A stretch of DNA of 64,000 nt from Candidatus Babeliales bacterium (lineage in GTDB: Bacteria; Babelota; Babeliae; Babelales; JANWKD01): contig CAVRJM010000001.1 of assembly GCA_963722075.1 (NCBI GenBank), forward strand, positions 1,210,864 to 1,274,863. The letters are read 5' to 3'. The notes under the pieces were generated by a model. It was not told the DNA's origin and searched no databases. It was given only the letters and a program-made list of their open reading frames with translations. Each line of letters opens with the position of its first letter. The first letter of the stretch is position 1. Position numbers and translations under genes: made by a program. Positions 7,093 through 61,453 of the stretch are shown in pieces.

Positions 7093-7517
7093 GGGGGCGT
7101 ACTGGCTTCGACGTGGTATCGATAGGTTAAAGAGCATGCCAAGTTTTGACTGAAAACTTGTAAAAGAATTGGTCGAAATATAAATGCAAACACTGTTAAA
7201 AGTGATGTTCCTGCAGCTTTATTTGGTTCAATCCAAAATTCAGTATTTGGTGCTCAAGCAGCAGCTTGTGCTTAATTACTGAATAGTTCAGGACACTTGT
7301 TAGCATAACGTGCTTATCAGCGGTGCTAACACGTATTACAAGAGATAAGACTTTCTCGCGTAGATTACATAATTTTGTAGCGAGAAAAAACACTAAATTA
7401 TCCTTACTTTCTATCTGTGTTTTCGAGGTGAAGTAACGGTATATTCGAAAACTGAGCATGGAGTACTTTAAGCTTGACATATTGCGGACATGGGTTCGAT
7501 TCCCATCGCCTCCACCA
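7093..7517 (+). ncRNA. ssrA: tmRNA (SsrA), one-piece
   Basis: The 5' end GGGGGCGTACTGGCTTCGACG pairs with the 3' end ...GGTTCGATTCCCATCGCCTCCACCA (acceptor stem, T-arm and CCA). An internal frame from GCA 7186 to TAA 7273-7275 encodes ANTVKSDVPAALFGSIQNSVFGAQAAACA. The resume codon is uncertain. Confidence 0.85.
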
Positions 7518-23500: not shown

Positions 23501-26500
23501 TTGCCTTATCTTCAATATATGTCAAATTATTATGGTGCAAAAGGACCGGTATATGTAAATCCAAATGCTGATCCTACCTTAAACGGTGTTCAGGCGCAAA
23601 GTAATAACGCTTCTTATTTTGTGGTGACGGGTGACAATACCAAACAAACAGGAATTAATTTATTTTCTGATACCGCAAATTTTGGCAATTCAGATAATAT
23701 ACGTGGTTGGGGAATCACCAAAGTAGGATCCTCTGCGGCATTAACATTTGTTTATACTAATAATGATTCTTCAGGCCAAGCATTACGTGGCTCAAATACG
23801 GTAATGCAACTTAACGGATTTGATAATCAAGTGGAATTCCCCCTTGCAACTAATGCACCGCTGCCAACTAATACGGTGGCAAAACTTGTGTGGGCAGGTG
23901 ATACCGATTTATATCGCTCTGCCGCTAATACTTTACAGACAGATGGTAATTTAGTTGTTGGTAGCTTAACACCAGCGGGAGTGGTCCATAATAATAATAC
24001 CGGTTTACTATCTACTTCACTCATAGTAAATGCCGATATAAGTAACAGCGCAGGAATTACTGATAATAAATTAGCAACCATTAGTACACCAGGAAAAGTA
24101 GCAAACTCAGCAACCACCGCAACGAGTGCGAATGTTCCAAATACCATTGTATTGCGTGACGGTTCAGGAAATTTTGCAGCAGGCACTATTACGGCATCAT
24201 TAATTGGTGCTGCGTCACTGAACGTGCTGAAGACCGGTGACACCATGACTGGCAACTTATTAATGGCAAACCAATCACAACTGCAATTCCAGGATAGCAC
24301 GAGTGGTAATTATGTAGCGATAGATGCACCAACAACCGTAGCTGCTACTTATACCGTTAGTTTACCCGCAACGGCACCACTGAGCGGTCAAGTATTGCAA
24401 GCAACATCGCCAACTACCCTCACCTGGGCATCGGTAGGTGGTTCCCCTGCGGTTGCTAAAACATATTATGTTGCTTTAAATGGTAATGATAGCAATGACG
24501 GATCATTTGATGCGCCATTTAGAACCGTTGCGCATGCAGTGAGCGTAGCAAATGGGGTTGCAAGTAGCGCAAATCCTATTGAAATTAGTATTATTGGAGC
24601 AGGAATATTTATTGAAAATAATTCAGGAGGTCCAATTACCGTAACTGCTGAAGGTATAAATATTATTGGTAGTTCAAATCAAGCAACTATTATAATGCCC
24701 ACAACGGCGGCAAATGACCTTTTTAGTATAGTAGTTCCCTCAGCAAAATTTGAGGCTTTTCAAGTAGCGTTATCGGGAGTTGGGTCGACCGGGAATGCGG
24801 TTACGTATAATGCAGGTCCTATCGGTGTTGTTACTATCGATAGAGTTGCGGTAAACGGGTCTTTTAATAATGCTTTTGCAATAAACGCAACTTCTGGTAC
24901 TCCAACAATAATATTAAATAATATTTTATGTGGCGGCTGTGTTAATGCCATTTCGATTACTAATGCGCAATGCGTTATTAAAAATTCTATTTTTCAAGGA
25001 TCATTGACAGCAAGCCCAGCAAATAATGGTATAAGCATTACCGGAACGAATGCTATTGTATTTTGTCTGAGTAACGTATTTAAATTATTTGCTAATGCTA
25101 TAAGTGTAACGGGTGGTGCAAGTGTTCGCATCTTGGGATCTAATTTTGAATCTACTACTAATGGATTAGCTGCATTAGGAGATAGTAACTTAACGATTGT
25201 TGGTTGCAACTTCATACTTAATAATCCAAGCTCAATAAATATTGCAGCTGCAGGGGCAAATACTGCTATTACGGTAGATGGATGTCAATTTCAATGCAAT
25301 GATGCAACGGGCAATCCACAAGGGACGGCACTTAAAGTAACAACAGGTGCATCAATACTTGCCGTTGGATCTTCTATTACAAATGCTGTAGTAGGTATTC
25401 AATGTGGTACAGCGGGAGACGCCAATACCACCGTAATGCGTGCGAATGCTACTACTTTAATTGGCTGTACTACTGATATTGTACAAACAAGTAGTTCAGC
25501 ATTATTTTTTATTGGTGGGGTATTTGACTCAAATAAGTTATCTTTTGCAAATCCAGCAAATGTTAGTTTTAGCGCATTTGATAGAACAAATAATGATGCA
25601 TTGACGCTCGGCAATGATGCTGATACTAATCAAATGTTAATACAAGTTTTAAACGGTGAGTCACTATTTCCAAATTGGGCATATCGATCGAATTATTACG
25701 GTACTAAAGGAGTTGTTTACGAAAATCAAAATAGTGACGCAACCTTTAATGGCGTGCAAGCGCAAAGTAATAATGCATCATATTTTGTAGTTACGGGAAA
25801 TAATGCCGCTCAAGCGAGCATAAATCTTTTATCCGATACAGCAAATTTTGGTAACCCTAACTCCGAGAATGTTCGTGGCTGGAGCATTGTTAAAACAGGT
25901 ACATCTGCCGACTTAGCATTTACCTATACTAATAACGATTCATCAGACCAAGCATTGCGCGGTTCTAATACCGTGATGCAACTTAATGGTTTTGATAATC
26001 AAGTAGAATTTCCTATTGCAACTAATGCACCGCTGCCAACTAATGCGGTAGCAAAATTAGTATGGGCTGGAGACACCGATTTATACCGTTCAACTACAGC
26101 AACGTTAGCAACTGATGGTAATTTAATTGTTGGCGCATTAACGCCTGCTGGTGTAGTGCATAATAGCAATACAGGATTACTTTCTACCTCGCTAATTGTA
26201 AATGCTGATATCAGCCCAGCCGCTGGGATTACTGATGATAAACTGGCAACCATTAGCACACCAGGAAAAGTTGCCAATTCTGCTACCACCGCAACGAGTG
26301 CTGATACGCCAAATACCATTGTACTGCGCGATGGTTCAGGAAATTTTGCAGCCGGCGCTATTACGGCATCATTAATCGGTGCTGCATCATTGAATGTGCT
26401 CAAGACTGGCGACACGATGACCGGTAATTTATTAATGGCAAACCAATCGCAAATACAATTCCAGGATAGTACCAGCGGTAATTATGTTGCAATAGATGCA

Positions 26501-29500
26501 CCAACAACGGTAGCTGCAACATATACCGTAAGCTTGCCTGCAAATGCGCCAACAACAGGCCAAGTATTGCAAGCAACATCACCAACAACACTCACCTGGG
26601 CATCGGTAGGCGGCTCACCAGCAATAGCAGAAACCTATTATGTTTCCCTTGCTGGTAGCGATAGTAATGATGGGTCTTTCTCGGCGCCATTTAGAACGGT
26701 AACTCATGCGGTGAACGTAGCTAATGGCGTAGCTAGTCTTGCTAATCCTATTGTTATTAATGTGGGTGCCGGTAATTTTGTTGAAAATAATACCGGTGGG
26801 CCAATTATTATTTCTGCTGATGGCATTAGTATTGTGGGGGCTACGCTTGTAGCTACTACCATTATACCAGCAAGTAGTACTGTCGATTTATTTCATATAA
26901 CAACAGGCAATGTTGAATTTCAAAATATATCATTGACGACACCGTTTCCTGGCTCTACAGCAAGTGCCGTTGTTATTACTATTTCGTCGGGGACGCCCCA
27001 ATTTAATACTATAACAGTGGGGCAATTCCAAATGGGATTTGACTTAAGCAGCTCAGTAATAACAAACATTCCTACTGTGGTATTTGAAAATATGCAATGT
27101 GCCGGTAATGGTACGAATATTATAGCTAATAATATCAATGCGGTGATTAAAAATTCTGTATTCCAAGGGCCATTATTCTTTGGGAGTGCAGCAAATAACG
27201 GCATTATATTAACAGGTGCAAACACACAAGCATTAATTTTAAGTTGCGCATTAAAATCATTTGACAATGCGCTACAAATTACCAACGCTGCACAAGCACG
27301 AATTCTCAGTGTTGATATTGAAAGCTCTACCACAGGCATTTTGTGCAATGGTGTATCAGATGCTTCAATTATTGGTTGTAATTTCTTTATCAATAATGCA
27401 AATTCGATCAACGTAAGTGTCTCAGGAGCAGGTACCAATATTACAGTAGAAGGTTCTCACTTTGAAGGATCTCTTGCGGGTGATACGCCATTGGGTACTG
27501 CACTTCAAGTAATTAATGGAGCAGTACTTTCAGTTGATTCTTGTGCTATCGAAAATGTTGCGGTAGGAATTCAATGTGGTAATCCGGGTGATACGGTTAC
27601 CACATTCTTAGAAGCAAGCGGTGTCGTTCTATCTGGCTGTACGGTAGATATTCAGCAAAATGGTGCTTCAAAACTTAATTTTTTTAGCGGCGTAGTTGAT
27701 ATCGATAAAACATTTATAAACGACCCAACCAATGTGAGTATTGCTGCATTTAATGATCAATCAGAATTAGTAATAGGGTCAGGAGCTAATACTGAACACC
27801 TGCTTTATGAGGTGCTTAATGGTCAAGTGCCAAGACCAAGTCTTACCTATGAGCCGGATTATTATGGAAAAATGGGTACGGTATTTGTAAATAGTAATAC
27901 GGGACAAACATTTAATGCAACGCAAGCACAAAGTGATAATGCTGCCTATTTTGTAATTACCGGCGATAACACTAAAGAAGCAGGACTTAATTTATTTTCA
28001 GATACTGCAAATTTTGGTGATCCAGATAATGTACGCGGGTGGGGAATCATAAAAACAGGGACATCTGCCGATTTAGCATTTACCTATACTAATAATGATT
28101 CGTCAGGACAAGCATTACGCGGTTCTAATACCGTGATGCAGCTCAATGGCTTTGATAATCAAGTAGAATTTCCTATTGCAACGAATGCACCATTGCCAAC
28201 TAATACGGTAGCAAAATTGATATGGGCTGGAGACACCGATTTATATCGCTCAACTACAGCAACGTTAGCAACGGATAGTAATTTTGTGGTTGCGCAGAAC
28301 GTAACCATTTCAAGTTTAACACCGGCTGGCGTAGTGCATAATGATAATACTGGTTTGCTTTCGACATCATTAATTGTAGACGCCGATATTAGCGCAAGTG
28401 CAAATATTGCTGATACAAAATTGGCAACGATTAGCACGCCCGGTAAAGTAGCAAATTCCGCTACTACAGCAACCAGTTCAGATGTGCCAAATACTATTGT
28501 GCTTCGCGATGGGTTAGGAAATTTTGAAACCAACATGATTACCATTGATGGAACTGTTAGTAATCCAACTGATGTTGCAACAAAGCAATATGTGGATAAT
28601 GCAGTAACAACCGGATTTGTGGTAAAGACAGCTGCTTTAGTGACCAGCACCGTTGATGTTGCCATTAGTGGGTTACAAACAGTTGATGGTGTGATGCTGA
28701 CCACCAGCGATCGAGTATTATTAGTTGGGCAAACAGATGGCGTAGAAAACGGATTATGGCTCGCTGAAGTAGGAAATTGGATGCGCCCAACTGATTTTTC
28801 TAGTGGTACTTCGGCTGGTAATTCATATGTACTTACCCTTTCAGGTACCGTAAATGGCGGGTCCAGTTGGATTTGTATTACGCCAACATCAATTATAGAT
28901 ACTAATACGATAGAATTTACTCAATTTGCATTAGCAAGCCAAACTACCGGCGCCAATGTGGGAGCAGGTACGGGGCAAGTGTTTCAAAGTAAAACCGGAA
29001 ATGTGTTGAATTTCAGAACACTTCTTGCCGGAACTCATATGGTAATAACAACTGACCCAAATGATGTAGCAATCGCAACTGATGCAACAAGCGCGAATAC
29101 ACCAAATACGCTTGTGGCGCGTGATGCCTCGGGAAATTTTGCTGCCGCGACTATTACGGCAAATTTATCGGGTAATGCTTCAACCGCAACATCCGCCACC
29201 AATTTTACCGGGGCGCTTGCTGGTGATGTTACTGGAACACAAGGAGCAACGGTGGTAAATTTTGTGGGTGGGCAAAGTGCAGCCAATGTTTCTTCAGCAA
29301 CGGTAGCAGCAAATGCAGCAACCAATTCTAATACACCAAATACGATCGTATTGCGCGATGGATCTGGTAATTTCTCAGCAGGCACGATTACGGCAAATCT
29401 CACCGGAAATGTTACCGGGAACTTAACTGGTAATGCCACAACTGCAACTAATGCAACGACGGCGGTAAATTTCAGCGGTTCGCTAAATGGAGATGTAACC

Positions 29501-31789
29501 GGAACGCAAGGCGCAACGGTAGTGAGCAACGTTGGTGGGCAAAGTGCTGCAAATGTAGCGGCAGCTACGGTGCTTGCAAGTGCATCCACAAGTGCAGATA
29601 CGCCAAGTACTATTGTGCGCAGAGATGCATCAGGAAATTTCTCAGCTGGTACAATCACCGCAAATTTAAATGGTAATGCAACCACCGCAACTACGGCAAC
29701 TACTGCAACAACTGCCGGATCGGCAATAAATTTTACGGGATCACTCAGTGGCGATGTAACGGGTACACAGGGAGCAACGGTGGTGAGTTTTGTTGGTGGG
29801 CAAAGCGCAGCAAGCGTAGCAGCAGCAACGACATTAGTTGGAACGGCAACGAGTAATAATATTCCAAGCACCTTAGTATTGCGTGATACATCAGGGAATT
29901 TTAGTGCCGGCACGATTACAGCGAATTTATCAGGGAATGCAACCACCGCAACAACTGCAACCAATTTTACCGGATCGTTATCGGGTGATGTAACGGGCAC
30001 GCAAAGTGCTACGGTGGTAAGTACCGTTGGTGGGCAAAGTGCAGCAAATGTTGCTTCAGCAACGGTGGCAGCAAATGCAGCAACCAATTCTAATACAGCA
30101 AACACCATTGTAAAACGTGATGCGTCAGGAAACTTTAGTGCTGACACAATAACGGCAAATTTAACAGGTAACGTGACGGGTAATTTAAGTGGTAATGCCA
30201 CCACGGCAACAACAGCCGGATCGGCAACAAACTTTACCGGATCACTTGAAGGAGATGTAACCGGAACCCAAGGTGCTACGGTAGTAAGTTCAGTTGGTGG
30301 GCAAACAGCAGCAAACGTGGCAGCAGCCACCGTGCTTGCCAATGCTGCAACCAACGCTGATACGCCAAGCACTATTGTACGCCGTGATGCATCAGGTAAT
30401 TTTAGTGCAGGTACAATTACTGCAAGTCTAAATGGTAATGCTACCACAGCAACCACAGCAACTAGTGCGACAACGGCAACTACCGCAACAAATTTCACTG
30501 GATCACTGAGCGGCGATGTAACGGGAACACAAGGTGCAACGGTGGTTAGTTTTGTGGGTGGGCAAAGCGCAGCAAGCGTAGCAGCAGCAACGTCACTGGT
30601 AAATACTGCTACCAGCAATAATGTAGCAAATACCATTGTAAAACGTGATGCATCAGGAAACTTTAGTGCTGGCACCATTACAGCAAATTTAACCGGTAAT
30701 GCAACCACTGCGACAACAGCAACCAATTTTAGCGGATCGCTATCAGGTGATGTAACGGGCACGCAAGGTGTAACGGTGGTAAGTACTGTTGGTGGGCAAA
30801 GTGCCGCCAATGTAGCATCAGCAACGGTGGCAGCAAACGCAGCAACGAATGCAGATACCGCAAGCACCATTGTAAAACGAGATGCATCAGGCAATTTTAG
30901 CGCTGGCACGATCACCGCAAATCTTACTGGTAACGTTACGGGGAATTTGAGCGGTAATGCAACCACGGCAACAACAGCCGGATCGGCAACAAACTTTACC
31001 GGCTCACTTTCAGGAGATGTAACCGGTACGCAAAGTGCAACGGTGGTCAGTTCAGTTGGCGGACAAAGTGCGGCAAATGTAGCAGCAGCTACCGTACTTG
31101 CCAATGCAGCAACAAGTGCTAATACGCCAAGTGCTATTGTGCGTCGTGATGCTTCGGGGAACTTCTCTGCGGGTGTTATTACGGCATCGCTTACGGGTGG
31201 TGTACTGACGGGGAATTTAACCTTGCCAGCAGGAACGGCAGCAGTGCCATCATTACAATTTTCAGGAAGTACTAATACCGGTATATCAGCACCGGCAGCA
31301 AATACGCTATCACTTGATACCAATGGCACCCAGCGGTTGAGTATTGATTCCACCGGAAGTGTTACGTACCATTCCAATTATAAAATGTATGCTTATTTAT
31401 CATCAAATCAAACTGTTAATGATACTACCGCAACGATTATTTTTAATACCGAATTATTTGATACCAATTCTAATTATAATAATACTACTGGTGTATATAC
31501 GGTACCAGTGACGGGAGTTTACCTAGTTGGCGTTACGGTGAATACCCAATCTTCTCATTCATCAGGTGCAACCCAAACGGTGAATATTGGACTAAACGGG
31601 ACAACTCCAATAACAGGAGCTTCTGTTTCACAAATTTCAAACTCAAGTGCTCAAAAATTGCCGATGACTTTATGCATATTGCTTTCATTAACGGCTGGCA
31701 ATACTATTCAAGTTCAATATACTACAAATCAGGACGATACGATTCAGTCGGGTGATACGCATTTGGCGATTCATTTTATGTCATTCTAA
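20573..31789 (+). CDS. giant secreted fibre-like protein (3,738 aa) with tail-fibre-like repeats, three beta-helix modules and a C1q/TNF-like C-terminal domain
   Basis: A single open frame of 11.2 kb with a Sec-like N-terminus. The PNTIVLRDGSGNF motif occurs 13 times. YYV..GSD.NDGSF.APFRTV.HAV...VGAGIF.ENN occurs three times. The C-terminal pattern IIFNTELFDTNSNYNNTTGVYTVPVTGVYLVGV...TAGNTIQVQY...HLAIHFMSF is C1q-like. Confidence 0.9.
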   Translation: MQFFLLILLTFFVSLYSEGSLKELSSQNSFIEIGVVRAPRPSTTEGGFIGLAGLFTTTPSITEIENIVFNSGFIQGPIASTIDAVPRFANTTGNLLKNSLVLVDDAGNITINGITKNGNTVSWPSIVGAAGTFLGSDGVGNLIYSTPVGSGNVSTALPFTTNDAITTVDILSGSHDIKQTSVTIDSSDNINGINSLNANVVNAPALNGNATSATTAGSFTGVLAGDVTGPQSATVVNFVGGQSAANVAAATVLANAATSSDVPNTLVLRDGSGNFETNMITIDGTVTNPTDVATKQYVDDAVLTGFVIKAPAVAYGASNITLSGLQTIDGVALNSNDRVLLNAQTNPVQNGLWLAQVGAWTRPADFASGTQAERSYVLITLGTVFEGSSWVCATPNAIIDTDPITFIEFSLPNQTTGANVGVGQGQIFQSKTGNTLNFRTILAGPHIVVTNDPNDVMISTDATNADTPNTIVLRDGSGNFSASTITAALTGAASLNVLKAGDTMTGNLNLALQSQLRLQDSTGSGSYVGLDAPAVVPVSYTVNLPASAPTTGQVLQATSPTALQWATVGGSTISEAYYVELSGSDANNGSFSAPFRTVAHAVNVANGVASLANPIVIHVGAGIFVENNSGGPITISADGISIVGSSNSGTTIVPTSLTNDLFNIAAANVEFDNFTISISNSTSTGNAITLSTSSAGLATFNTITIIGAFNNGFNLSTSVGSSSVAFNNILTGGCTTAISLNNMQCVIKNSLFQGSLTTTPANTGFSITGTNSIIYVLGSLLRLCNTALSITGGANIHVIGTTIESSINGIVANGGSIVEMVGDNFSFNSPSSINVFASGANTNVTVDGCQFACADMAGNSQGTAVQATNQGTILLVGSSIEYAVLGIQCGAVSDTSATSIRANATTLIGCTTDIQQLGSSTFRFVGGVFDVNKISIANATNVTFAAFDRTNNETLALGSNADTNQTLFEVLNAQPTLPYLQYMSNYYGAKGPVYVNPNADPTLNGVQAQSNNASYFVVTGDNTKQTGINLFSDTANFGNSDNIRGWGITKVGSSAALTFVYTNNDSSGQALRGSNTVMQLNGFDNQVEFPLATNAPLPTNTVAKLVWAGDTDLYRSAANTLQTDGNLVVGSLTPAGVVHNNNTGLLSTSLIVNADISNSAGITDNKLATISTPGKVANSATTATSANVPNTIVLRDGSGNFAAGTITASLIGAASLNVLKTGDTMTGNLLMANQSQLQFQDSTSGNYVAIDAPTTVAATYTVSLPATAPLSGQVLQATSPTTLTWASVGGSPAVAKTYYVALNGNDSNDGSFDAPFRTVAHAVSVANGVASSANPIEISIIGAGIFIENNSGGPITVTAEGINIIGSSNQATIIMPTTAANDLFSIVVPSAKFEAFQVALSGVGSTGNAVTYNAGPIGVVTIDRVAVNGSFNNAFAINATSGTPTIILNNILCGGCVNAISITNAQCVIKNSIFQGSLTASPANNGISITGTNAIVFCLSNVFKLFANAISVTGGASVRILGSNFESTTNGLAALGDSNLTIVGCNFILNNPSSINIAAAGANTAITVDGCQFQCNDATGNPQGTALKVTTGASILAVGSSITNAVVGIQCGTAGDANTTVMRANATTLIGCTTDIVQTSSSALFFIGGVFDSNKLSFANPANVSFSAFDRTNNDALTLGNDADTNQMLIQVLNGESLFPNWAYRSNYYGTKGVVYENQNSDATFNGVQAQSNNASYFVVTGNNAAQASINLLSDTANFGNPNSENVRGWSIVKTGTSADLAFTYTNNDSSDQALRGSNTVMQLNGFDNQVEFPIATNAPLPTNAVAKLVWAGDTDLYRSTTATLATDGNLIVGALTPAGVVHNSNTGLLSTSLIVNADISPAAGITDDKLATISTPGKVANSATTATSADTPNTIVLRDGSGNFAAGAITASLIGAASLNVLKTGDTMTGNLLMANQSQIQFQDSTSGNYVAIDAPTTVAATYTVSLPANAPTTGQVLQATSPTTLTWASVGGSPAIAETYYVSLAGSDSNDGSFSAPFRTVTHAVNVANGVASLANPIVINVGAGNFVENNTGGPIIISADGISIVGATLVATTIIPASSTVDLFHITTGNVEFQNISLTTPFPGSTASAVVITISSGTPQFNTITVGQFQMGFDLSSSVITNIPTVVFENMQCAGNGTNIIANNINAVIKNSVFQGPLFFGSAANNGIILTGANTQALILSCALKSFDNALQITNAAQARILSVDIESSTTGILCNGVSDASIIGCNFFINNANSINVSVSGAGTNITVEGSHFEGSLAGDTPLGTALQVINGAVLSVDSCAIENVAVGIQCGNPGDTVTTFLEASGVVLSGCTVDIQQNGASKLNFFSGVVDIDKTFINDPTNVSIAAFNDQSELVIGSGANTEHLLYEVLNGQVPRPSLTYEPDYYGKMGTVFVNSNTGQTFNATQAQSDNAAYFVITGDNTKEAGLNLFSDTANFGDPDNVRGWGIIKTGTSADLAFTYTNNDSSGQALRGSNTVMQLNGFDNQVEFPIATNAPLPTNTVAKLIWAGDTDLYRSTTATLATDSNFVVAQNVTISSLTPAGVVHNDNTGLLSTSLIVDADISASANIADTKLATISTPGKVANSATTATSSDVPNTIVLRDGLGNFETNMITIDGTVSNPTDVATKQYVDNAVTTGFVVKTAALVTSTVDVAISGLQTVDGVMLTTSDRVLLVGQTDGVENGLWLAEVGNWMRPTDFSSGTSAGNSYVLTLSGTVNGGSSWICITPTSIIDTNTIEFTQFALASQTTGANVGAGTGQVFQSKTGNVLNFRTLLAGTHMVITTDPNDVAIATDATSANTPNTLVARDASGNFAAATITANLSGNASTATSATNFTGALAGDVTGTQGATVVNFVGGQSAANVSSATVAANAATNSNTPNTIVLRDGSGNFSAGTITANLTGNVTGNLTGNATTATNATTAVNFSGSLNGDVTGTQGATVVSNVGGQSAANVAAATVLASASTSADTPSTIVRRDASGNFSAGTITANLNGNATTATTATTATTAGSAINFTGSLSGDVTGTQGATVVSFVGGQSAASVAAATTLVGTATSNNIPSTLVLRDTSGNFSAGTITANLSGNATTATTATNFTGSLSGDVTGTQSATVVSTVGGQSAANVASATVAANAATNSNTANTIVKRDASGNFSADTITANLTGNVTGNLSGNATTATTAGSATNFTGSLEGDVTGTQGATVVSSVGGQTAANVAAATVLANAATNADTPSTIVRRDASGNFSAGTITASLNGNATTATTATSATTATTATNFTGSLSGDVTGTQGATVVSFVGGQSAASVAAATSLVNTATSNNVANTIVKRDASGNFSAGTITANLTGNATTATTATNFSGSLSGDVTGTQGVTVVSTVGGQSAANVASATVAANAATNADTASTIVKRDASGNFSAGTITANLTGNVTGNLSGNATTATTAGSATNFTGSLSGDVTGTQSATVVSSVGGQSAANVAAATVLANAATSANTPSAIVRRDASGNFSAGVITASLTGGVLTGNLTLPAGTAAVPSLQFSGSTNTGISAPAANTLSLDTNGTQRLSIDSTGSVTYHSNYKMYAYLSSNQTVNDTTATIIFNTELFDTNSNYNNTTGVYTVPVTGVYLVGVTVNTQSSHSSGATQTVNIGLNGTTPITGASVSQISNSSAQKLPMTLCILLSLTAGNTIQVQYTTNQDDTIQSGDTHLAIHFMSF
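21359..21973 (+). repeat. module A, copy 1 (205 aa) of the giant gene
   Basis: PNTLVLRDGSGNFETNMITIDGTVTNPTDVATKQYVDDAV...DRVLLNAQTNPVQNGLWLAQVGAWTRPADF... It is repeated at 28487-29101 with the same length. Confidence 0.85.
21974..28486 (+). repeat. three tandem B units (721, 724 and 726 aa) of the giant gene
   Basis: Unit boundaries fall at 21974, 24137, 26309 and 28487. They were set by the in-frame PNTIVLRDGSGNF motif. The units are diverged but collinear. Confidence 0.85.
28487..29101 (+). repeat. module A, copy 2 (205 aa) of the giant gene
   Basis: PNTIVLRDGLGNFETNMITIDGTVSNPTDVATKQYVDNAV...DRVLLVGQTDGVENGLWLAEVGNWMRPTDF... Confidence 0.85.
29102..31126 (+). repeat. eight short tandem units (78/89/87 aa) with a 254-aa higher-order period
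   Basis: Counted unit lengths are 78,89,87,78,89,87,78,89 aa (675 aa, 2025 bp). The consensus is xxTIVxRDxSGNFSAGTITANLxGN..ATTAT..NFTGSLSGDVTGTQxATVVSxVGGQSAANVAxATV.ANAAT. Confidence 0.85.
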
Positions 31790-51875: not shown

Positions 51876-53138
51876 TTAGTTGATTTGGCCCATAAATTGT
51901 AACAAGTTAAGCCACTGCGAATCTTGGGCAAAAGTCGTTTTATAATAAGAACTATCAATAACATTGTATGGAAGATATATCGAAAGCCCGTACGCATTGT
52001 TTCTTGATTTAAATCCGCCACAATGAGCCACTGCCATATGAGAAACGGTTTCGTAAAAATCGTTAAAAGCTTTTTTTAAATGATCATCGTAATATTCTAA
52101 TGGTAATTGTTCTTCTACTAATTTGATGAATGCAACCATATCGGTATACATTGGCCACATGCAAAAGCGAGGAGCTCTATTGCATGCCTGTTCTAGGATT
52201 GGTTTAATTTCAGGAATTTCAAGTAATAAAGTAAGTACCGCATCAAATTTTTCACGAACTTGATTTACTACTGAAAGATCTACGGCGGCATGGGTATAAA
52301 CTCCTGATACATCATTTTTTGTGTAATAAGAATCAAAAGCTTTTACCATCTGTGCAGCTAATTGAGCGGGTGAGGGATTAGAATTTATGAAACTAATGAT
52401 TGGTTCATAATTAAACCCATCGCGTAATGAACAACTTTGGTTGCCTACTAAATAGTGTGCATAGGGAGCACATTGATAGGCAATTTCAACCATGGCTCCC
52501 ATGCAGGTATCAAAAGCAAGGATATCGATTTTTTTGCCATTAAGAATGTTTTGAGTAATAAATGCTAAGCTTTTTATCAATTTTTTATTTGTAAGATATT
52601 GGTGAGCATTGTCGTTAAACATAAAGCCGCGATGATTTTTATGTTCTTCTAATTGCTGAACAAATGAACGCTTAATGCTGCAGGGGCCTTCAATAGGGCA
52701 TGAGTTATTGCTTGCATTATGTACCGATTCCCATTGTTCTGATTCAGTATTCCATATGGGATCTAAGATGCCCCAGCCATGATTAGATAAAATGAGCATG
52801 GTGTGTTCTGCGTCGTCATTTTTAAATGCCCATTGAGCTGCATTAATAAAATCATTAAAGGGATTACCGCTTAAATTAACTTCTTCAATAAAATGTAAAT
52901 TATTATTGCTGATGCGGTATCGTAGCCCTGCATTATAATAGGCATGTACCTGAATAAGAAGTTCTATGGAATCATTTGGGTTGCCGCGCATCATATCAGT
53001 GATATTTTTAATTGCCATGTCACTCAAATCATCACTTGAATCCATGTAAATAAAAATATTCCAGGAATGTGCTATTAATGGATTGTAAGTAAATGATGCG
53101 ATAATCAATGCAAGAAAGAAAATAGATGTGCGATTCAT
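51876..53138 (-). CDS. secreted clostripain-like cysteine peptidase (family C11)
   Basis: The start is moved to ATG 53138 (GGGAGA upstream; MNRTSIFFLALIIASF). WNIFIYMDSSDDL, LILSNHGWG (His-Gly) and ILAFDTCMGAMVE (catalytic Cys context) are present. Confidence 0.75.
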   Translation of the reverse strand: MNRTSIFFLALIIASFTYNPLIAHSWNIFIYMDSSDDLSDMAIKNITDMMRGNPNDSIELLIQVHAYYNAGLRYRISNNNLHFIEEVNLSGNPFNDFINAAQWAFKNDDAEHTMLILSNHGWGILDPIWNTESEQWESVHNASNNSCPIEGPCSIKRSFVQQLEEHKNHRGFMFNDNAHQYLTNKKLIKSLAFITQNILNGKKIDILAFDTCMGAMVEIAYQCAPYAHYLVGNQSCSLRDGFNYEPIISFINSNPSPAQLAAQMVKAFDSYYTKNDVSGVYTHAAVDLSVVNQVREKFDAVLTLLLEIPEIKPILEQACNRAPRFCMWPMYTDMVAFIKLVEEQLPLEYYDDHLKKAFNDFYETVSHMAVAHCGGFKSRNNAYGLSIYLPYNVIDSSYYKTTFAQDSQWLNLLQFMGQIN

Positions 53139-53314
53139 AATAATTCTCCCTAAAAATTTATCCCTATCCAAATAAATATAATTAATGATGTAAATTTTTC
53201 TCAATAAAATGTTATTTTCCACGGCATTCATACAGCTGTAAACGTTTGATCTTACCATATAAAAATGGTAAATCTTGAAAAGTTGAATTCAATTTTTGTT
53301 TAAAGGGAATAGTA

Positions 53315-55192: not shown

Positions 55193-56626
55193 ATGAATTT
55201 ATTTATATTGGCATTTTATTTTGCGGTTTCTTTTGGCGGTGTTATTAATGCAATGGAAGACGCAAGCGATGTAAATAATGACCCACATTTTTTAGCACTG
55301 AAATCAATGCCACCTTTAGTTGATGGAATAATAAAGGCTAATGAATGTCCTTTTGTAACTGAGCGATCCATACAGCCTTTAACGAGATTATGTATTCCCG
55401 CGCTGAATGCGTATGTTCGAGCTCAAATTCAGCATAACCCTCAATTTAATGTAACGCAATTTGAAAATTTGCTTTTATTAATTGGTGAGCATAGTTCTTA
55501 TTTACAACAATCTCTTGCGCAAGAAATTGATACGGTGCCGCTTGAAATACAATATGAAGAAGACAAAAACGAAAAGGAAAACTATATATATGAAATAAAA
55601 CTTGCGGGTTCAAATATGATTATCAGTCAAAAGGAGAAAGCTTTATTTACAAGAGAAAATAAATTAAAAAAAATTGCGAGCAAAAAACGGTCTCATATAA
55701 CATCTATTAATGATAATACATTTGTTGATGGGAGAAAATATTTTTCTATTTCAAATAATGGCAGGGTAGCATATCTCGATAAGACTTCTTTATATTTACA
55801 ACTACCGTCGGATATAAATGATTGGTTACCAATAAGCTTTTTAAATGAATTATCACTATCTGAATCTTCTTCACCGGGATCTACTAAAGGACGTAATAGC
55901 TGTGCATGTGTTACATTTAGCCCCAATCAAGATTATTGCTTTGTAGGTACTACCGGTGGGGAAATTTTTAGGATTAATTTTCCTGCAGTGCTAGAATTAA
56001 CCAAGAAAATATCTAAACATAGCATTAAGGCACTTTATTGCGCAACTAATGGCTGTGTGTATGTTTCAGATGATAATGAGAAAAACTTCGTCTGGTATAA
56101 TGAGGATATATTTGAATTACCATTTAAACAGCATACTAAAGAGATAATAAGTTCTGCAGATAATAATCTTGTTGCATTTCAACATCAAAACAATGAAGAA
56201 GTTTCAATAGTTGATTGGCATGCTCGTTCTATCGTTACTCTCAAATTAGGTAAAATAGTAGCCATTACCCCCGATCATACAATTATAGCATCACGTGGTG
56301 AAGAGTTATTATTCTATAATATTCATGGCGAACTATTAAACAAAATCCAATTGTCTGCGGGGAGCACCGTATTTGGCAATACCGTTCCTTCATTTGATCC
56401 TCAAACCCCCTTATATGTGGTTGCAACAAAAGAAGAGCAAATTATCGTAGTTGATGATTATGAAACTTATGATGATACATGGATTCCAAGCATGAGTAGA
56501 GCTCCTAATTGCAAAAAAGTTGGTTCGCATACAGAAAAAAAATTAAAAAATTGCTTATGGTTTCCAAAGCAACTTTCAACTCAAGAATTATTTGATGAAC
56601 TTAGTAAATTGCGTAAAAAAGAGTGA
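55193..56626 (+). CDS. secreted hypothetical protein (possible beta-propeller-like C-terminal half)
   Basis: 477 aa with signal MNLFILAFYFAVSFGGVINA. The N-terminus resembles that of the next ORF (…FSGVINAMEA). Confidence 0.5.
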   Translation: MNLFILAFYFAVSFGGVINAMEDASDVNNDPHFLALKSMPPLVDGIIKANECPFVTERSIQPLTRLCIPALNAYVRAQIQHNPQFNVTQFENLLLLIGEHSSYLQQSLAQEIDTVPLEIQYEEDKNEKENYIYEIKLAGSNMIISQKEKALFTRENKLKKIASKKRSHITSINDNTFVDGRKYFSISNNGRVAYLDKTSLYLQLPSDINDWLPISFLNELSLSESSSPGSTKGRNSCACVTFSPNQDYCFVGTTGGEIFRINFPAVLELTKKISKHSIKALYCATNGCVYVSDDNEKNFVWYNEDIFELPFKQHTKEIISSADNNLVAFQHQNNEEVSIVDWHARSIVTLKLGKIVAITPDHTIIASRGEELLFYNIHGELLNKIQLSAGSTVFGNTVPSFDPQTPLYVVATKEEQIIVVDDYETYDDTWIPSMSRAPNCKKVGSHTEKKLKNCLWFPKQLSTQELFDELSKLRKKE

Positions 56627-56672
56627 TTTTAAGTTTATACTATTATTAAAGGCTTATTGAAAGGAATTTGAT

Positions 56673-57077
56673 ATGAAATCATTTATAGCATTATTTTATT
56701 TTTCTGTATTATTTTTTTCTGGAGTGATAAATGCAATGGAAGCTAGTGAAGCGAAAAAAGTTGCTGAAGCAGCAGAAATAAAGGTAACAAAGGAGGCGTC
56801 TCTTATTGCCATAGTTGCAGCACAAGAAAAACAAAAACATGATGCTTGTTATGATAAATGCCCCGGTATGAAGAAAATAGATACCAGTAAAAAAAAGAAT
56901 AACGATGATGATTTTGATTATACTAAGTGGTGTCCTGGTATGAGACCACCTACAAGAAATGCAACTGAATCAGCTAACAATAAATCAAACGATAATGATT
57001 TTGGTGAACGATGGTGGCCTTCATATGAATCTACTCATACAAAAAATGATAGTAAGCATTATGATTGGGTTCCGTAA
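56673..57077 (+). CDS. secreted hypothetical protein
   Basis: 134 aa. The signal MKSFIALFYFSVLFFSGVINA is paralogous to that of 55193. Confidence 0.45.
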   Translation: MKSFIALFYFSVLFFSGVINAMEASEAKKVAEAAEIKVTKEASLIAIVAAQEKQKHDACYDKCPGMKKIDTSKKKNNDDDFDYTKWCPGMRPPTRNATESANNKSNDNDFGERWWPSYESTHTKNDSKHYDWVP

Positions 57078-57104: not shown

Positions 57105-57347
57105 TTACACATTTGCTTTGCAATTCTTGCAATCCCTGCAGCCTCTACAATCTTTGCAATTACTATTAATAGCCAAATTTTTTGAATTAATATTTTTGCG
57201 TATTTCTGAAATTTTTTTATCAGAGCGTGCTAATCGTTCGGTTACCGTAGCATTTATACGAATGGTAACAATTATAGACAATAAAAATATTACTATTTTA
57301 TCTTTCATTTTTTTCTTCTTCGCAAAGTAGTTTTGTTTGTTATTCAT
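57105..57347 (-). CDS. small secreted peptide with CxxC-repeat C-terminus (paralog 1)
   Basis: The conserved core is TVTERLARSDKKISEIRKNINSKNLA. The tail is NCKDCRGCRDCKNCKANV. It lies directly downstream of ORF 57349. The true start may be the internal Met (MKDKIVIFLLSIIV). Confidence 0.5.
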   Translation of the reverse strand: MNNKQNYFAKKKKMKDKIVIFLLSIIVTIRINATVTERLARSDKKISEIRKNINSKNLAINSNCKDCRGCRDCKNCKANV

Positions 57348-57348
57348 T

Positions 57349-57843
57349 TTAACACATATCTAAAAGCCAAATAGAATTAATTTCTTCTTGAAAAGTTTCC
57401 TCATAGTTTTTGATAAATGCTTGAAAATCATTACGAATTTCTTCTAGTTTTTCCGGTGTTGTATTCTTATTTGTTTCAGGAATATGATGTATAAAATGGT
57501 TGCAAAATTTGCTACAAAAATCTGCATAATCCTTGGTAAATAAAATGAAAGAGTGCCATAAATTATCAACATCTTTACTATACATGCCAACACCTGATCC
57601 ATTGTTAGTAATAAGTGCTGAAAGTATTAGATATTTTTTTAATTCCTTTTCAAGAATAATCATATCTTCATTTGTATAATTATGATCTTTCTGACATCTT
57701 TTAATGATATCATCCATGGGGTAATCTAATATACCTTTGATAATCTGCTTTTTATTAACTTCTTTCGTTGAATAGCTATATAAACAAACAACAGTTACTA
57801 ATCCTATCGTAGCAAACAATAATATTTTATTGATTATTTTCAT
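57349..57843 (-). CDS. membrane-anchored protein with a D-x2-WH-x2-ILFT-x2-Y-x2-FC...HH motif
   Basis: The track starts at TTG 57861; ATG 57843 (MKIINKILLFATIGLVTVVCLY) is preferred. DNLWHSFILFTKDYADFCSKFCNHFIHHIP resembles a conserved bacterial/plant domain. My recollection is the glycine-rich-domain/DUF1399-like family, but this is uncertain. Confidence 0.55.
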   Translation of the reverse strand: MKIINKILLFATIGLVTVVCLYSYSTKEVNKKQIIKGILDYPMDDIIKRCQKDHNYTNEDMIILEKELKKYLILSALITNNGSGVGMYSKDVDNLWHSFILFTKDYADFCSKFCNHFIHHIPETNKNTTPEKLEEIRNDFQAFIKNYEETFQEEINSIWLLDMC

Positions 57844-57958
57844 GATTAAATTCTTATGCAAATGATGGTACAGTATGGTTTTGATTATGAATTATTAGAA
57901 TATAAAGATGATTGAGTTATTAGCAATTAAATAACTCAATTATCTTTATATAAACATG

Positions 57959-58156
57959 TTATATAGATTTTTTACAGCCAGAGCAGCTTTTACAACTTTG
58001 TCTACAATCAGAAGCTGCTGCTAAATTTTTTGAATTAATATTTTTGCGTATTTCTGAAATTTTTTTATCAGAATGTGCTAATCGTTCAGTTACTGAAGCG
58101 CGAATTTGCGCAGTGAAGATTAAAGTAATTGCTGTTAATAGTAATGTATTGTTCAT
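57959..58156 (-). CDS. small secreted peptide with Cys-rich C-terminus (paralog 2)
   Basis: It has a signal peptide, then SVTERLAHSDKKISEIRKNINSKNLA, then the tail SDCRQSCKSCSGCKKSI. The core DNA is nearly identical to 57178-57250. Confidence 0.5.
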   Translation of the reverse strand: MNNTLLLTAITLIFTAQIRASVTERLAHSDKKISEIRKNINSKNLAAASDCRQSCKSCSGCKKSI

Positions 58157-58416
58157 TAACGTCCTTTGTGTTTATGTTTATTTAACCATACGTTTAATAA
58201 CATTTTTTATTTGAGTGTGCAAGCAAAGATGAGGTTTTTATTGTACAATAAACAAAAAATTATAAGGAGTGGTAAGCTATTTGGTGGAAGTTGTTTTACT
58301 ATTATTTTTTTTGGTATTTTTACAATTTTAACAATTGCCGTCTGTTACCATTAAATTTTTTGAAACTGATTTTGCTAGTAGCATTTCAGTTGTTGAAATG
58401 AAGGGTTTAACAATTT

Positions 58417-58731
58417 TTATTCGTGCCAGCTACATAATTCATATATAAGCTTCTCATGCTCCTCGCTCTTTTGTATCTGAAGGCTTAGTGCATTGAGTTT
58501 GTTATTATATTCATTCTGTGCCTGATGCATATCCATCCCATGTTTTATATTTTCTGCTATTAATGCTTGTTCATTATCCAAAAAATATTGATGGTATTTT
58601 TTTAAGTCTGCACTTGCTGTTTGATTAGTTGTTTGGTTATTATCTACCCAATTAAACAAGCTTTCTTCCATTGAAAAAATAAAGTTACTATACGTTAGTA
58701 CGGATAAATAAAAAATTCTTACTGTTTTCAT
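58417..58731 (-). CDS. secreted hypothetical protein
   Basis: 104 aa with signal MKTVRIFYLSVLTYSNFIFS and a helical body. Confidence 0.45.
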   Translation of the reverse strand: MKTVRIFYLSVLTYSNFIFSMEESLFNWVDNNQTTNQTASADLKKYHQYFLDNEQALIAENIKHGMDMHQAQNEYNNKLNALSLQIQKSEEHEKLIYELCSWHE

Positions 58732-58778
58732 ATTAATAAATCGACTAATTTTGAGTAAAAAACTGGTGATTAAAACTT

Positions 58779-58934
58779 TTATTTTTTTGTAGTTCTACAA
58801 TCTTTGCAGTTATTCTTACCATGTTTACAGTGACCTGCTAGAACATTTTTTGTTGGATCGGTTTGTTTTTGGGTAGTTAGGGAATGGGCTGATATCATGA
58901 TGCATACTAGCGCTAGGAATAATGTCTTTTTCAT
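58779..58934 (-). CDS. small secreted Cys-containing basic peptide (51 aa)
   Basis: Below the track cutoff and read by eye: MKKTLFLALVCIMISAHS-LTTQKQTDPTKNVLAGHCKHGKNNCKDCRTTKK*. It shares the NCKDCR motif with 57105..57347. Confidence 0.35.
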   Translation of the reverse strand: MKKTLFLALVCIMISAHSLTTQKQTDPTKNVLAGHCKHGKNNCKDCRTTKK

Positions 58935-59006: not shown

Positions 59007-61453
59007 CTACTTGATTGCAATTTTTGCTTTATATACTTCCTGATCTTTAACTAATAGTGATTCAGAAAGATCTGAAATCTGATAATGTATCATTTCTGCT
59101 TGCGTTACCCCTTTAATAAGTTGTTCTAAGGGAGCTAAAGCATCCAATTTTTTTTGTTCAGCGCTGTAAATTTCGAGTGCTTTTAAAGGTGTTTTTAATG
59201 ATAGTTGCTGTGCAGTTTTTAATGTACGAACTTCACTAATTACTTGTAACGCAATGGTCATTGTTAGTGCGCTTGCTTCAAAGGTATATGCTCGTTGATC
59301 AAATTCAGTATTATGAATAGATGGATTTTTTATGGTTGATTTATATAGTTCTTGATAAATCGCTTCGGTAATATATGGTATGTACGGTGCAAATGGTTGC
59401 AATATATTCAATCCTACCGTATAAAGCGTCCATCGGGTACCAGCAATTTCTTGTGGTGAATACAATTCTGGTTTGAATAACTGTTCCTTAATTATTTCAA
59501 TATAATTATCACAAAAATCGTTCCAAAAAAACTGCTCAATAGCATCAAGCGCTAAGCTAAATTCATACTCATCAAAATAATGTCTGTAATTTTTAAAACA
59601 AAGCGTCTTTTGATGTAACAGCCATTCATTAGCTGCACCTAAATATGCCGGTTGCTCAGTAGGAATATCGCGCATATGTTCATGAATAAAACGAAATGCA
59701 TTCCATAATTTTGTAATAAGGCGTTGACCAATTTTGAGTTGATTTTCTGAAAATGCAACATCGCTGCCCAATCGTCCAGATGCTGTCCAATAACGGATAA
59801 CATCTGCTGGATATTGTTCTAGCAATTGTTCAGGAGCTAAGCGAGCATTTTCTTTTGATTTTGATAACTTTTCTTTTGCGTCACTTAATACGTGACCAGA
59901 AATAACAATCGTACGCCAAGGAATTTGTTCATAATGCATCCAAGATTTTACGACGGTGTAAAATGCCCAGGTGCGAATAATATCATGCGCTTGGGGCCGC
60001 ATACTCATGGGTATAAATTCTTTAGCCGCGTCTCCAAACGGGCTTTCTTGCGGATTATATAATGAAAAACAAAGTTGTGGTGTTAATGAAGAAGTGTTCC
60101 AGGTGTCCATTACATCAGTATCTGGTTCAATAATACTGCTTTGGCAGGTAGGGCAATTTGCAGTATATGCTGTTTCTTGCGGATCAATAGGCAGCTGTTT
60201 TTCATCTGCTAAAATGACATGCCCATTATTACAATGCCAAGCTGGAAATGGGATACCATAAAAGCGTTGACGCGATAAGCACCAATCCCAACTTAATGAT
60301 TCAACCCAATTAACATAACGTGACCTCATAAAATGTGGGAACCATTCTATTTGATCAGCAAGCTCAATAAAATTCTTTTTATAAGGAAGAAGCTCTAAAA
60401 ACCATTGTGTTAATGCTAAATATTCAATCTCTTTTTTGCAGCGTTCGTGTACATTTACGGTATGCATAATTGGTTTTTGATTGAGCAATTTACCGTGCTC
60501 TTTAAGCTCAGCTAATACCTTTTCTCGTGCTTGGTGTACTTTTAACCCAGCTAAAATACCGGTATCTTCATTCCACCGGCCATCTTTACCAATTGATGGT
60601 TTATACGGTAAGTTATACTTTTTAATCCACTGAATATCTGTTTTATCGCCAAAGGTACAACACATTACCAACCCAGTTCCTTTTTCAATAGACACTGCAT
60701 CATCGGCTAAAATAGGAACCGTATAATTATAGAGCGGGACAATTGCTTTTTGCCCAGCCAGGTGCTGGTAACGGGGATCATGAGGATTATAAAAAAGCGC
60801 TACACAGGAAGGTAGCAATTCAGGTCGGGTAGTTCCCACAATAAGCGGACTACCATCAGCAGCGCTGAATGCAATATCATTAAAAAAAGATGATTTCTCT
60901 ACATCGTCCAATTCTGCTTGCGCGACTGTGGTGCGGCAGGTGGTACAATATAGAGCTGGTTCATGTTTACGATAAATAAAGCCTTTTTTATATAAGGCGA
61001 TAAATGATTCTTGTGAGATTCTTCGCGATCTAGTATCAATGGTGGAATAGCTTAACTGCCAATCAACAGAAAGTCCCATCCGTTGCCACAAGCTTTTAAA
61101 TTGTTCTTCAACTTCATGCGTTTCGAGTAAGCACAGTTGAATAAACTCTGAGCGCTTCATAGCATGGGCGCTTATTTCTTTTTTTTCTCTACAAATCGTT
61201 CAGTCGGTAGACCGTTATCATCAAAACCAAAGGGATAAAAAACAGAAAAACCGGTCATTCGTTTATAACGAGCTATAATATCGGTTTGTGTATAAGAAAA
61301 AATATGCCCTATATGTAAAGATCCTGACACCGTTGGTGGTGGGGTATCAATGCTGTAGGGAGGCTTATCAGCGGATGCTTTGTAAATATGCTCCTTATCC
61401 CAAAGCTCATTTATTTTTATTTCATATTTTTTATTATCGTACTGTTTTTCCAT
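59007..61453 (-). CDS. valS: valine--tRNA ligase, reading frame interrupted at an A8 run
   Basis: The N-part (61172..61453) carries PPPTVSGSLHIGH (HIGH motif) and GFDDNGLPTERFVEKKKK*. The C-part (59007..61160) carries the class I core with KLSKSK (KMSKS). One extra A in the run at 61179-61186 gives ...ERFVEKKKEISAHAMKRSEF... Confidence 0.85.

Follow-up and report, generated by a model that had tools for sequence, protein, structure and literature searches.

Plant GRDPs are described as carrying a low-complexity Gly-rich tail after a GRDP-like (DUF1399, PF07173) domain (PMC4299439). Bufferins and oxazolins are ribosomally synthesized and post-translationally modified peptides (RiPPs) whose precursors contain Sec signals and are modified by MNIO enzymes; they chelate copper, and a periplasmic role under metal stress, including inside amoebae, has been proposed for them (PMC12452194). 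Here we describe a locus that shares features with both, located on the minus strand at 57.1-58.2 kb of a 64,000-nucleotide (nt) stretch of DNA from a Candidatus Babeliales bacterium (contig CAVRJM010000001.1, positions 1,210,864 to 1,274,863; hereafter the window). It encodes two small Cys-rich peptide precursors, pep1 and pep2, and ORF164, a 164-amino acid (aa) helical protein with a conserved His motif. We find that this locus is a split, exported version of a widespread module that combines a His-motif domain with a hypervariable Cys-rich segment. The domain family is catalogued but functionally blank: for UCP032817, PF27765, DUF1399 and GRDP-like proteins, the searchable literature gives plant phenotypes and no biochemistry. 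That literature appears to contain no description of the peptide family or of its coupling to the domain.

ORF164 shares the signature D..WH.[HF].L.T..Y...HH.P with the GRDP-like/DUF1399 family, but it has no PF07173 match, it is exported, and the tail has moved to separate peptide genes. Like bufferin and oxazolin precursors, the peptides of this locus are small, carry Sec signals and conserved Cys motifs, and are encoded in operons of very few genes. In contrast to bufferins, neither the peptides nor their neighbours match DUF2282, Buf_6/12_Cys, MNIO (DUF692) or DUF2063, and the partner domain is a different one, structurally novel and likewise exported. The large, diverse family of TIGR04222 membrane proteins also combines a structured N-terminal domain with an unstructured Cys-rich, low-complexity tail. 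However, neither ORF164 nor its tailed relatives, including P0208, matched TIGR04222, a model whose presence in the library is unconfirmed, and there is no MNIO association in the loci that we read (P numbers denote database protein records, and L numbers fetched loci or contigs). Metallothioneins and metallochaperone tails are comparable in composition, with ~25-30% Cys in CxC and CxxC arrangements, an abundance of Lys, Ser and Gly, few aromatic residues and hypervariable length; the tails studied here differ in showing no homology to such families in Pfam or NCBIfam, in being tied to one domain, and in forming sequence-conserved classes. Among RiPPs, borosins occur both as fused OphMA-type proteins and as split enzyme/precursor pairs, and thus resemble our module in having the core in cis or on a separate short precursor, but the locus has no methyltransferase. 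Methanobactin precursors (MbnA) offer a further likeness, in size and layout, to the tiny cytoplasmic peptides of other family members described below (26-36 aa, with a helix and a C-terminal Cys motif), but MbnB and MbnC are missing here. Judged by sequence, the locus shows none of the features that define the bufferin, TIGR04222, metallothionein and borosin families, save generic ones.

On the minus strand, transcription runs from pep2 through a hairpin to ORF164 and on to pep1. The open reading frames (ORFs) reported in the initial annotation are all present on this strand, with one start revised below. pep2 (57959..58156) encodes a 65-aa precursor; an AAGGA Shine-Dalgarno-like motif precedes its ATG, and it matches the family hidden Markov model (HMM, see below) at E=2e-28. 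The stem-loop, found as an inverted repeat (I1) and by RNA folding, occupies 57900..57951. ORF164 (57349..57843) starts at the ATG at 57843, giving 164 aa as in its homologues. A longer, TTG-started version reaching 57861 is unsupported; the homologues start at the position equivalent to the 57843 ATG. The longest ORF of pep1 extends to 57347 (80 aa), and pep1 had accordingly been described as starting 2 nt past the ORF164 stop. Its second ATG, at 57308, is the likelier start: it lies 40 nt past the stop, follows a purine-rich stretch, and yields the 67-aa precursor (57105..57308, MKDKIVIF..., HMM E=1.5e-29) of the source's own gene call, P0083. The 40-nt gap agrees with the spacing of downstream peptide genes in L046, L047 and L050 (27-39 nt).

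Both precursors have three parts. pep2 contains a predicted Sec signal peptide (approximately residues 1-20) with a putative cleavage site between ...AQIRA and SVTERL, an amphipathic helix, SVTERLAHSDKKISEIRKNINSKN, and a basic Cys-rich tail, DCRQSCKSCSGCKKSI. pep1 contains a signal peptide, the same helix and the tail NCKDCRGCRDCKNCKANV, with five Cys at a spacing of 3. Cys density is thus high in both tails (5 Cys in 18 residues for pep1 and 4 in 16 for pep2). The nearly identical core reported for the two peptides corresponds to an 80-nt direct repeat (D1; 57172..57251, second copy 58020-58099) with 93% DNA identity, which codes for the shared helix, [ST]VTERLA[HR]SDKKISEIRKNINSKNLA. The tails differ, as reported, and so do the hydrophobic N-termini. 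In a codon alignment, pep1 and pep2 form a mosaic, with ~22 central codons near-identical at the DNA level and the signal and tail diverged to roughly the between-genome level, which suggests that gene conversion or cassette-like exchange may have been limited to the helix-coding core. We tried two other assignments and discarded them. DUF6587 scores 17.5 bits for pep2 against a 27-bit cut-off, and we discount it as hydrophobic-plus-Cys composition. A lipoprotein reading of the signal ends that break between ...QC and S is not favoured by the sequence, the sole evidence considered, in which residues -1 to -3 misfit a lipobox. Pfam and NCBIfam scans of ORF164, pep1, pep2, a third candidate peptide (pep3) and the neighbouring proteins gave nothing above threshold, with a Pfam set without the PF27765 model.

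pep2 lies upstream of the domain gene, the commonest arrangement among relatives. Its orthologue P0085 adjoins the closest ORF164 homologue, on contig L071, which has no downstream peptide copy; pep1, on the downstream side of the domain gene, is an additional copy specific to its lineage. Between pep2 and P0085, dN is ~0.35 and dS ~1.03 (dN/dS ~0.34), and the tail DCRQ[SG]CKSCSGCK[KT]SI is kept through several synonymous codon changes. A search of 5.8 billion proteins retrieved only four called members of the peptide family, because gene callers miss such small ORFs. An HMM based on the five peptides known at first was therefore run against all small ORFs in 74 fetched loci and the window. 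This yielded 35 distinct peptides beside homologous domain genes on other contigs, showing that the small ORFs are conserved well beyond this locus. Because of the low dN/dS, the synonymous changes in the tail and these 35 members, pep1 and pep2 are real genes under purifying selection and not chance ORFs.

All 35 peptides have a signal-peptide-like N-terminus, a conserved amphipathic helix (consensus ASLxEKLAxxxxKIxxxKxNIxSGK) and a hypervariable tail, the architecture of leader-like segment and variable Cys core that the initial annotation had pointed out in pep1 and pep2. The number of Cys per tail ranges from 0 to 7 (median 4), and the median net charge is +3. Several tail classes recur across genomes, including HCKFCNKDC[KR]K, ECKV[RH].CKFRCK and [SG]CRTKGC.RC..KCNK, and the tails are therefore not random low-complexity sequence. 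In one peptide (L008, 2618-2908), the helix and Cys motif are duplicated within the same ORF.

The initial annotation suggested testing whether the peptide core and the WH...HH protein occur together elsewhere, and the outcome is clearly positive. Among the roughly 30 Babeliales-type loci with enough flanking sequence, the HMM detects one to three peptide genes in 25, on the strand of the domain gene and 27-550 nt from it; weaker look-alikes are found in L052 and L054. The peptide genes are mostly upstream of the domain gene, with a gap of 40-150 nt, and downstream, like pep1, in L046, L047 and L050. In L013, the peptide is fused in frame to the N-terminus of the domain (P0089, 2806-3408). Every HMM match in ~450 kb of loci plus the window adjoins a domain gene. 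No other neighbour is conserved in the Babeliales loci, and the peptide-domain pair is therefore self-contained. The hairpin recurs as well. In the window it has 22-nt arms and an 8-nt loop with a folding energy of -20.7 kcal/mol (z=-5.65; none of 200 shuffles was as stable), and it is terminator- or attenuator-like without a clean U-run. Most of 17 other loci have a hairpin at the same position, often followed by a T-run, with z <= -2 in 14 of the 17. A terminator-like hairpin after the upstream peptide gene suggests that the cell makes more peptide than domain protein.

In ORF164, a hydrophobic signal or anchor at the N-terminus (residues ~2-25) is followed by an all-helical domain, and the protein has no Cys-rich tail of its own. 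Precomputed annotation assigns it (as P0001) to Pfam PF27765, UCP032817-like, as it does all 81 close homologues, of which the named ones are Babeliaceae, Babeliales or Dependentiae. In an alignment of 33 homologous sequences (A3), D93, W96, H97, F99, L101, T103, Y106, F109, H119, H120 and P122 are invariant (ORF164 numbering), within the signature D..WH.FIL.T..Y..F...F.HH.P at positions 93-122. The reported conserved His/Cys motif thus stands for its His residues (H97, H119, H120), but its Cys is not invariant. With A3 as input, AlphaFold2 (AF2) gives a confident model (predicted local distance difference test score, pLDDT, 91; predicted template modelling score 0.81) that is all-helical with an N-terminal hydrophobic helix. 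In the Protein Data Bank (PDB), there is no relative by sequence, and the best fold match has an E of 1.1 with a template modelling (TM) score below 0.3. Foldseek matches the model to a Harvfovirus GRDP-like protein (E=7.7e-6, TM 0.66/0.77, root-mean-square deviation 2.1 A), and a bridging eukaryote-type protein, P0171, matches both the A3 profile (2.3e-27) and PF07173 (7e-12). PF07173 itself gives no hit to ORF164 or to the 33 sequences of A3, even with the cut-off relaxed to E<=10. On the strength of the giant-virus fold match and of P0171 hitting PF07173, we place the ORF164 domain in the GRDP/DUF1399 superfamily. The BFVD matches to the model include GRDP-like proteins of Harvfovirus, Gaeavirus, Terrestrivirus and Orpheovirus, some of them fused to ubiquitin-like domains; these proteins of amoeba giant viruses may reflect gene exchange among amoeba-associated organisms. 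PADLOC defence models gave no matches at E<=0.1, and PHROGs gave nothing.

An exhaustive profile search for the family returned 11,267 clusters at 50% identity (E<=1e-3). We surveyed the best 150 of these clusters for post-domain tails and counted the 120 in which the domain match reaches the profile end. A short, low-complexity tail with at least 3 Cys follows the domain in 76 of these 120 representatives, and one with at least 2 Cys in 87 of them; examples end in ...CTGCAKCKNGCGSNCSNNCASSCAALCSGK or ...DCNSCGSSCGCGSGSGCSGCSSGCGNG. The corresponding number for Babeliales-type proteins is 0 of 75, and it is precisely these proteins that come with a separate peptide gene. Most tail-bearing representatives have no N-terminal hydrophobic segment and are therefore presumably cytoplasmic, and one relative, P0208, has transmembrane segments and a GGGCGG... 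tail. Further C-terminally fused Cys-rich tails occur in L015, L016/L058 and P0080. L015 (225-2517) encodes four tandem exported paralogues: the two with the WH/HH motif have Cys tails, whereas the two without the motif have none. The contigs of the fused proteins P0131 and P0080 are short, and their one informative neighbour is a Cupin_2 gene.

Other members are split without being exported. Tail-less cytoplasmic domain proteins in three Legionella species, a Sericytochromatia metagenome-assembled genome (MAG), L067, L068 and L070 have tiny ORFs of 26-42 aa directly upstream of or overlapping the domain gene, each with a short helix and a C-terminal ...K.CC[GA], CCRYHG or C..C..C. In Legionella wadsworthii, rowbothamii and saoudiensis (L027-L029), they read M[ST]KEEMICRI.R...QK..AQK.CC[GA], and the Sericytochromatia MAG has two copies of MKNELLALIIEKKMANGNFKPKCCRYHG. 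L022 has two copies of such an ORF and L067 has three. Together, the tiny ORFs have the look of a peptide family that has escaped annotation, with a layout resembling that of methanobactin precursors. As a general explanation, we rejected a C-terminal CC/CaaX-like host prenylation signal in the Legionella peptides; the same peptide type occurs in non-intracellular lineages. In Actinobacteria (Nocardia, Dermacoccus, Kocuria and metagenome contigs; L017, L018, L020, L021, L060, L061, L063-L065), the domain proteins end in ...GIMDCK[AG]GV, and the domain gene is part of a conserved cluster with a 2-oxoglutarate (2OG)-Fe(II) oxygenase, a RimK-like ATP-grasp protein, an S-adenosylmethionine (SAM) methyltransferase and an AMP-binding enzyme. 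This cluster may be biosynthetic and act on the C-terminus of the domain protein.

Fusion in some lineages with adjacency in others is a textbook indication of joint function. The peptides correspond to the Cys-rich tail that most relatives carry in cis, here detached from the domain. Since relatives carry the tail in cis, ORF164 is an obligatory peptide partner and not an incidental membrane protein, and possibly a maturase or metal partner. Both Babeliales partners bear export signals and neither partner does in the cytoplasmic split forms, and they are therefore expected to meet in the same compartment. The helix is conserved in the peptides and absent from the fused forms, and would thus be the obvious docking element. 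Invariant Asp, His and His-His residues and thiol-rich tails point to a metal centre or thiol chemistry. A composition of Cys with Lys, Ser and Gly in CxxC runs is metallothionein-like.

The explanation that we favour, tentatively and at somewhat less than even likelihood, is that domain and tail together bind, load or buffer metal, possibly with oxidative Cys chemistry. From the features above we infer direct binding, the role of the helix, the involvement of metal and the chemistry. In this scheme, the two parts would meet outside the cytoplasm, the peptide by way of its Sec signal and the domain protein through its N-terminal signal or anchor. After signal-peptide cleavage, the remaining ~45-aa peptide would dock onto the domain protein by its conserved helix and present its basic, metallothionein-like CxxC/CxxxC tail to the invariant Asp/His/His-His site. 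The domain would then handle metal with the thiolates (Cu, Zn or Fe loading, transfer or buffering), possibly with oxidative chemistry on the Cys residues, and the products would be small periplasmic or secreted Cys-rich metallopeptides. One domain gene could serve one to three peptide genes with different tails.

Several observations weigh against such a metal-handling module. No experiment or structure ties the domain to metals or peptides, and the fold has no PDB relative, so no chemistry can be transferred to it. The survey of locus neighbours found no conserved metal-responsive regulator or transporter. Many tails have only 2-3 Cys, and the sequence-conserved tail classes exceed the specificity that a simple metal sponge needs. 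L003, L009 and L037, the sole such lineage among the Babeliales-type loci with enough flank, have no peptide gene, and the domain can therefore work alone. For the P0089 fusion, an AF2 prediction from the single sequence without an alignment (pLDDT 43) is unusable for judging helix docking. Finally, the peptide excess implied by the terminator and the presence of several peptides per domain gene fit an enzyme and its substrates, as in RiPP systems, at least equally well.

A close rival is accordingly a RiPP-like system, which we regard as a possibility of lower standing: the UCP032817-like domain would be an unrecognised enzyme, perhaps a metalloenzyme, that covalently modifies the Cys core with the helix as leader. 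In Babeliales, it might act in trans on one to three precursors, and elsewhere in cis on the tail that it carries itself; candidate chemistries, no less tentative, include oxidative Cys chemistry, heterocycle formation and crosslinking. The conserved helix followed by a hypervariable Cys core, the several tandem precursors per domain gene and the invariant D, H, HH and Y residues all fit such an enzyme. So does the terminator-like hairpin after the precursor gene, a common feature of RiPP operons. The tiny cytoplasmic precursors recall methanobactin MbnA, and fusions or neighbours of tailoring type occur sporadically, namely a cupin with weak PCO_ADO similarity, an oxidase that uses flavin adenine dinucleotide, a methyltransferase and a GNAT protein. 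The Actinobacteria cluster, with its 2OG oxygenase, ATP-grasp, methyltransferase and AMP-binding genes, adds conserved partners of the kind. In addition, similar Cys/Gly/Ser tails of TIGR04222 proteins have been proposed as MNIO substrates (PMC12452194).

The neighbourhood speaks against modification: none of the known maturase classes is conserved there, nor is a leader protease or an exporter. The initial annotation had already remarked that no radical-SAM, cyclase or protease maturase is close to the peptides, and our scans bear this out: the proteins encoded at ~54.6-63.9 kb of the window contain no recognised maturase class, with radical SAM, YcaO, Lan, MNIO and ATP-grasp among those sought. 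A clostripain-family (Peptidase_C11) protein is encoded at 51876-53258 on the minus strand, ~4 kb from the locus; we do not count it as a maturation protease, because it is not conserved beside the module elsewhere. Moreover, both Babeliales partners are exported, which makes ATP- or SAM-dependent chemistry unavailable, the tail is mostly in cis at a 1:1 ratio, which is rare for enzymes, and the fold is like that of no known enzyme. Of the earlier RiPP or toxin reading, the leader and core architecture thus holds, but no maturase is nearby and the cis tails of relatives provide a different frame. A defensin-like role, in particular, is hard to reconcile with the fused forms in the cytoplasm.

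We consider it improbable that the peptides are host effectors, that is, basic Cys-rich peptides secreted into a protist host, with the neighbouring protein as a chaperone or unrelated. Such effectors might target membranes by polybasic or lipidation-like Cys tails, or act like antimicrobial peptides. The signal peptides and basic tails, the signal-peptide proteins encoded by nearby genes, the Babeliales-like closest homologues of the window protein, and the presence of the domain in Legionella species and amoeba giant viruses are compatible with this idea. However, the module is mostly cytoplasmic and also occurs in free-living Actinobacteria, Sericytochromatia, Bdellovibrionota and others, a Sec signal leads only as far as the periplasm, and the idea would explain neither the fusions nor why the peptide genes are so strictly coupled to the domain gene.

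Still less probable are Sec-dependent, bacteriocin-like peptides with the helical neighbour as immunity protein. Small cationic secreted Cys peptides followed by the gene of a small helical protein, variable tails and tandem paralogues would suit such a pair. Yet the family is dominated by fused cytoplasmic domain-tail proteins, its His motif stays invariant across thousands of clusters, whereas immunity proteins evolve fast, bacteriocins would be of little benefit to obligate intracellular Babeliales, and no bacteriocin or immunity family in Pfam or NCBIfam is matched. That the small ORFs are non-functional, as a DNA- or RNA-level repeat or as chance AT-rich intergenic ORFs, is hardly credible and effectively refuted for pep1 and pep2: the four called database members and a pep3 unsupported beyond its ORF speak for it, but 35 peptides keep the same three-part plan and position in divergent genomes with little DNA identity, dN/dS is ~0.34 with synonymous tail changes, natural in-frame peptide-domain fusions exist, and Shine-Dalgarno-like motifs precede the start codons.

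pep3, the 51-aa ORF at 58779..58934 (minus strand), lies upstream of the module on the far side of an unrelated 104-aa ORF on the same strand. It has a signal-like N-terminus and the tail HCKHGKNNCKDCRTTKK, and lacks the conserved helix. Its segment 58794-58818 matches the pep1 tail at 57144-57168 in 22 of 25 nt, a second match that arose in none of 100 shuffles. However, the peptide-family HMM does not recognise pep3 (E 0.4-3), and a search of the protein database returned no homologue, not even pep3 itself. On these grounds we do not accept it as a confirmed family member; it is a doubtful ORF of uncertain gene status, possibly a relative that has degenerated or arisen as a chimera.

The surroundings of the locus include further features of their own. 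The window is bacterial, with a transfer-messenger RNA at 7093-7517 and a G+C content of ~33%. ORFs of 477, 134 and 104 aa near the module (55193-57077 on the plus strand; 58417-58731 on the minus strand) have signal-like starts ending in ...GVINAME(D/A)S or ...FIFSMEES, which suggests a lineage-specific exported family or a shared sorting signal; none of the three is conserved beside the module in other genomes. A valyl-tRNA synthetase-like gene at 59007-61453 on the minus strand is split into an N-terminal ORF (61172..61453, 93 aa), which contains the HIGH motif and matches tRNA-synt_1, and a remainder (59007..61160, 717 aa) in another frame. The break coincides with a lysine/poly-A run (…FVEKKKK*); it reflects either a sequencing error in the homopolymer, decay into a pseudogene or programmed frameshifting. 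At 20573-31789 on the plus strand, a giant ORF of 3738 aa lies in a stretch of raised G+C (0.40-0.45 vs ~0.33); its sole Pfam match, at the C-terminus, is to C1q, an unusual domain to find in bacteria.

The pairing of a His-motif domain with a Cys-rich segment is more general than this locus alone, extending to related amoeba-associated bacteria and to fused proteins across many bacteria. The complementarity of split and fused forms provides a testable hypothesis for the superfamily, namely that a Cys-rich segment is the substrate or the working partner of the His-motif domain. Minimal systems for testing it are available in the two-gene Babeliales and Legionella pairs and in the fused proteins. 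Should the tails turn out to bind or buffer copper or zinc, the module would be a new metal-defence device of amoeba-dwelling bacteria. Covalent modification would instead make them ribosomal natural products of a new class, produced by an enzyme of new fold. One possibility, which we hold with reserve, is that the GRDP/UCP032817-like domain is a metalloenzyme of new fold that matures Cys-rich ribosomal peptides, in cis in thousands of lineages and in trans in Babeliales, Legionella and others. Were this true, it would reveal a large unrecognised class of RiPP-like peptides or metallopeptides, and would for the first time assign a biochemical function to the DUF1399/GRDP superfamily, whose members extend to plants, fungi and giant viruses.

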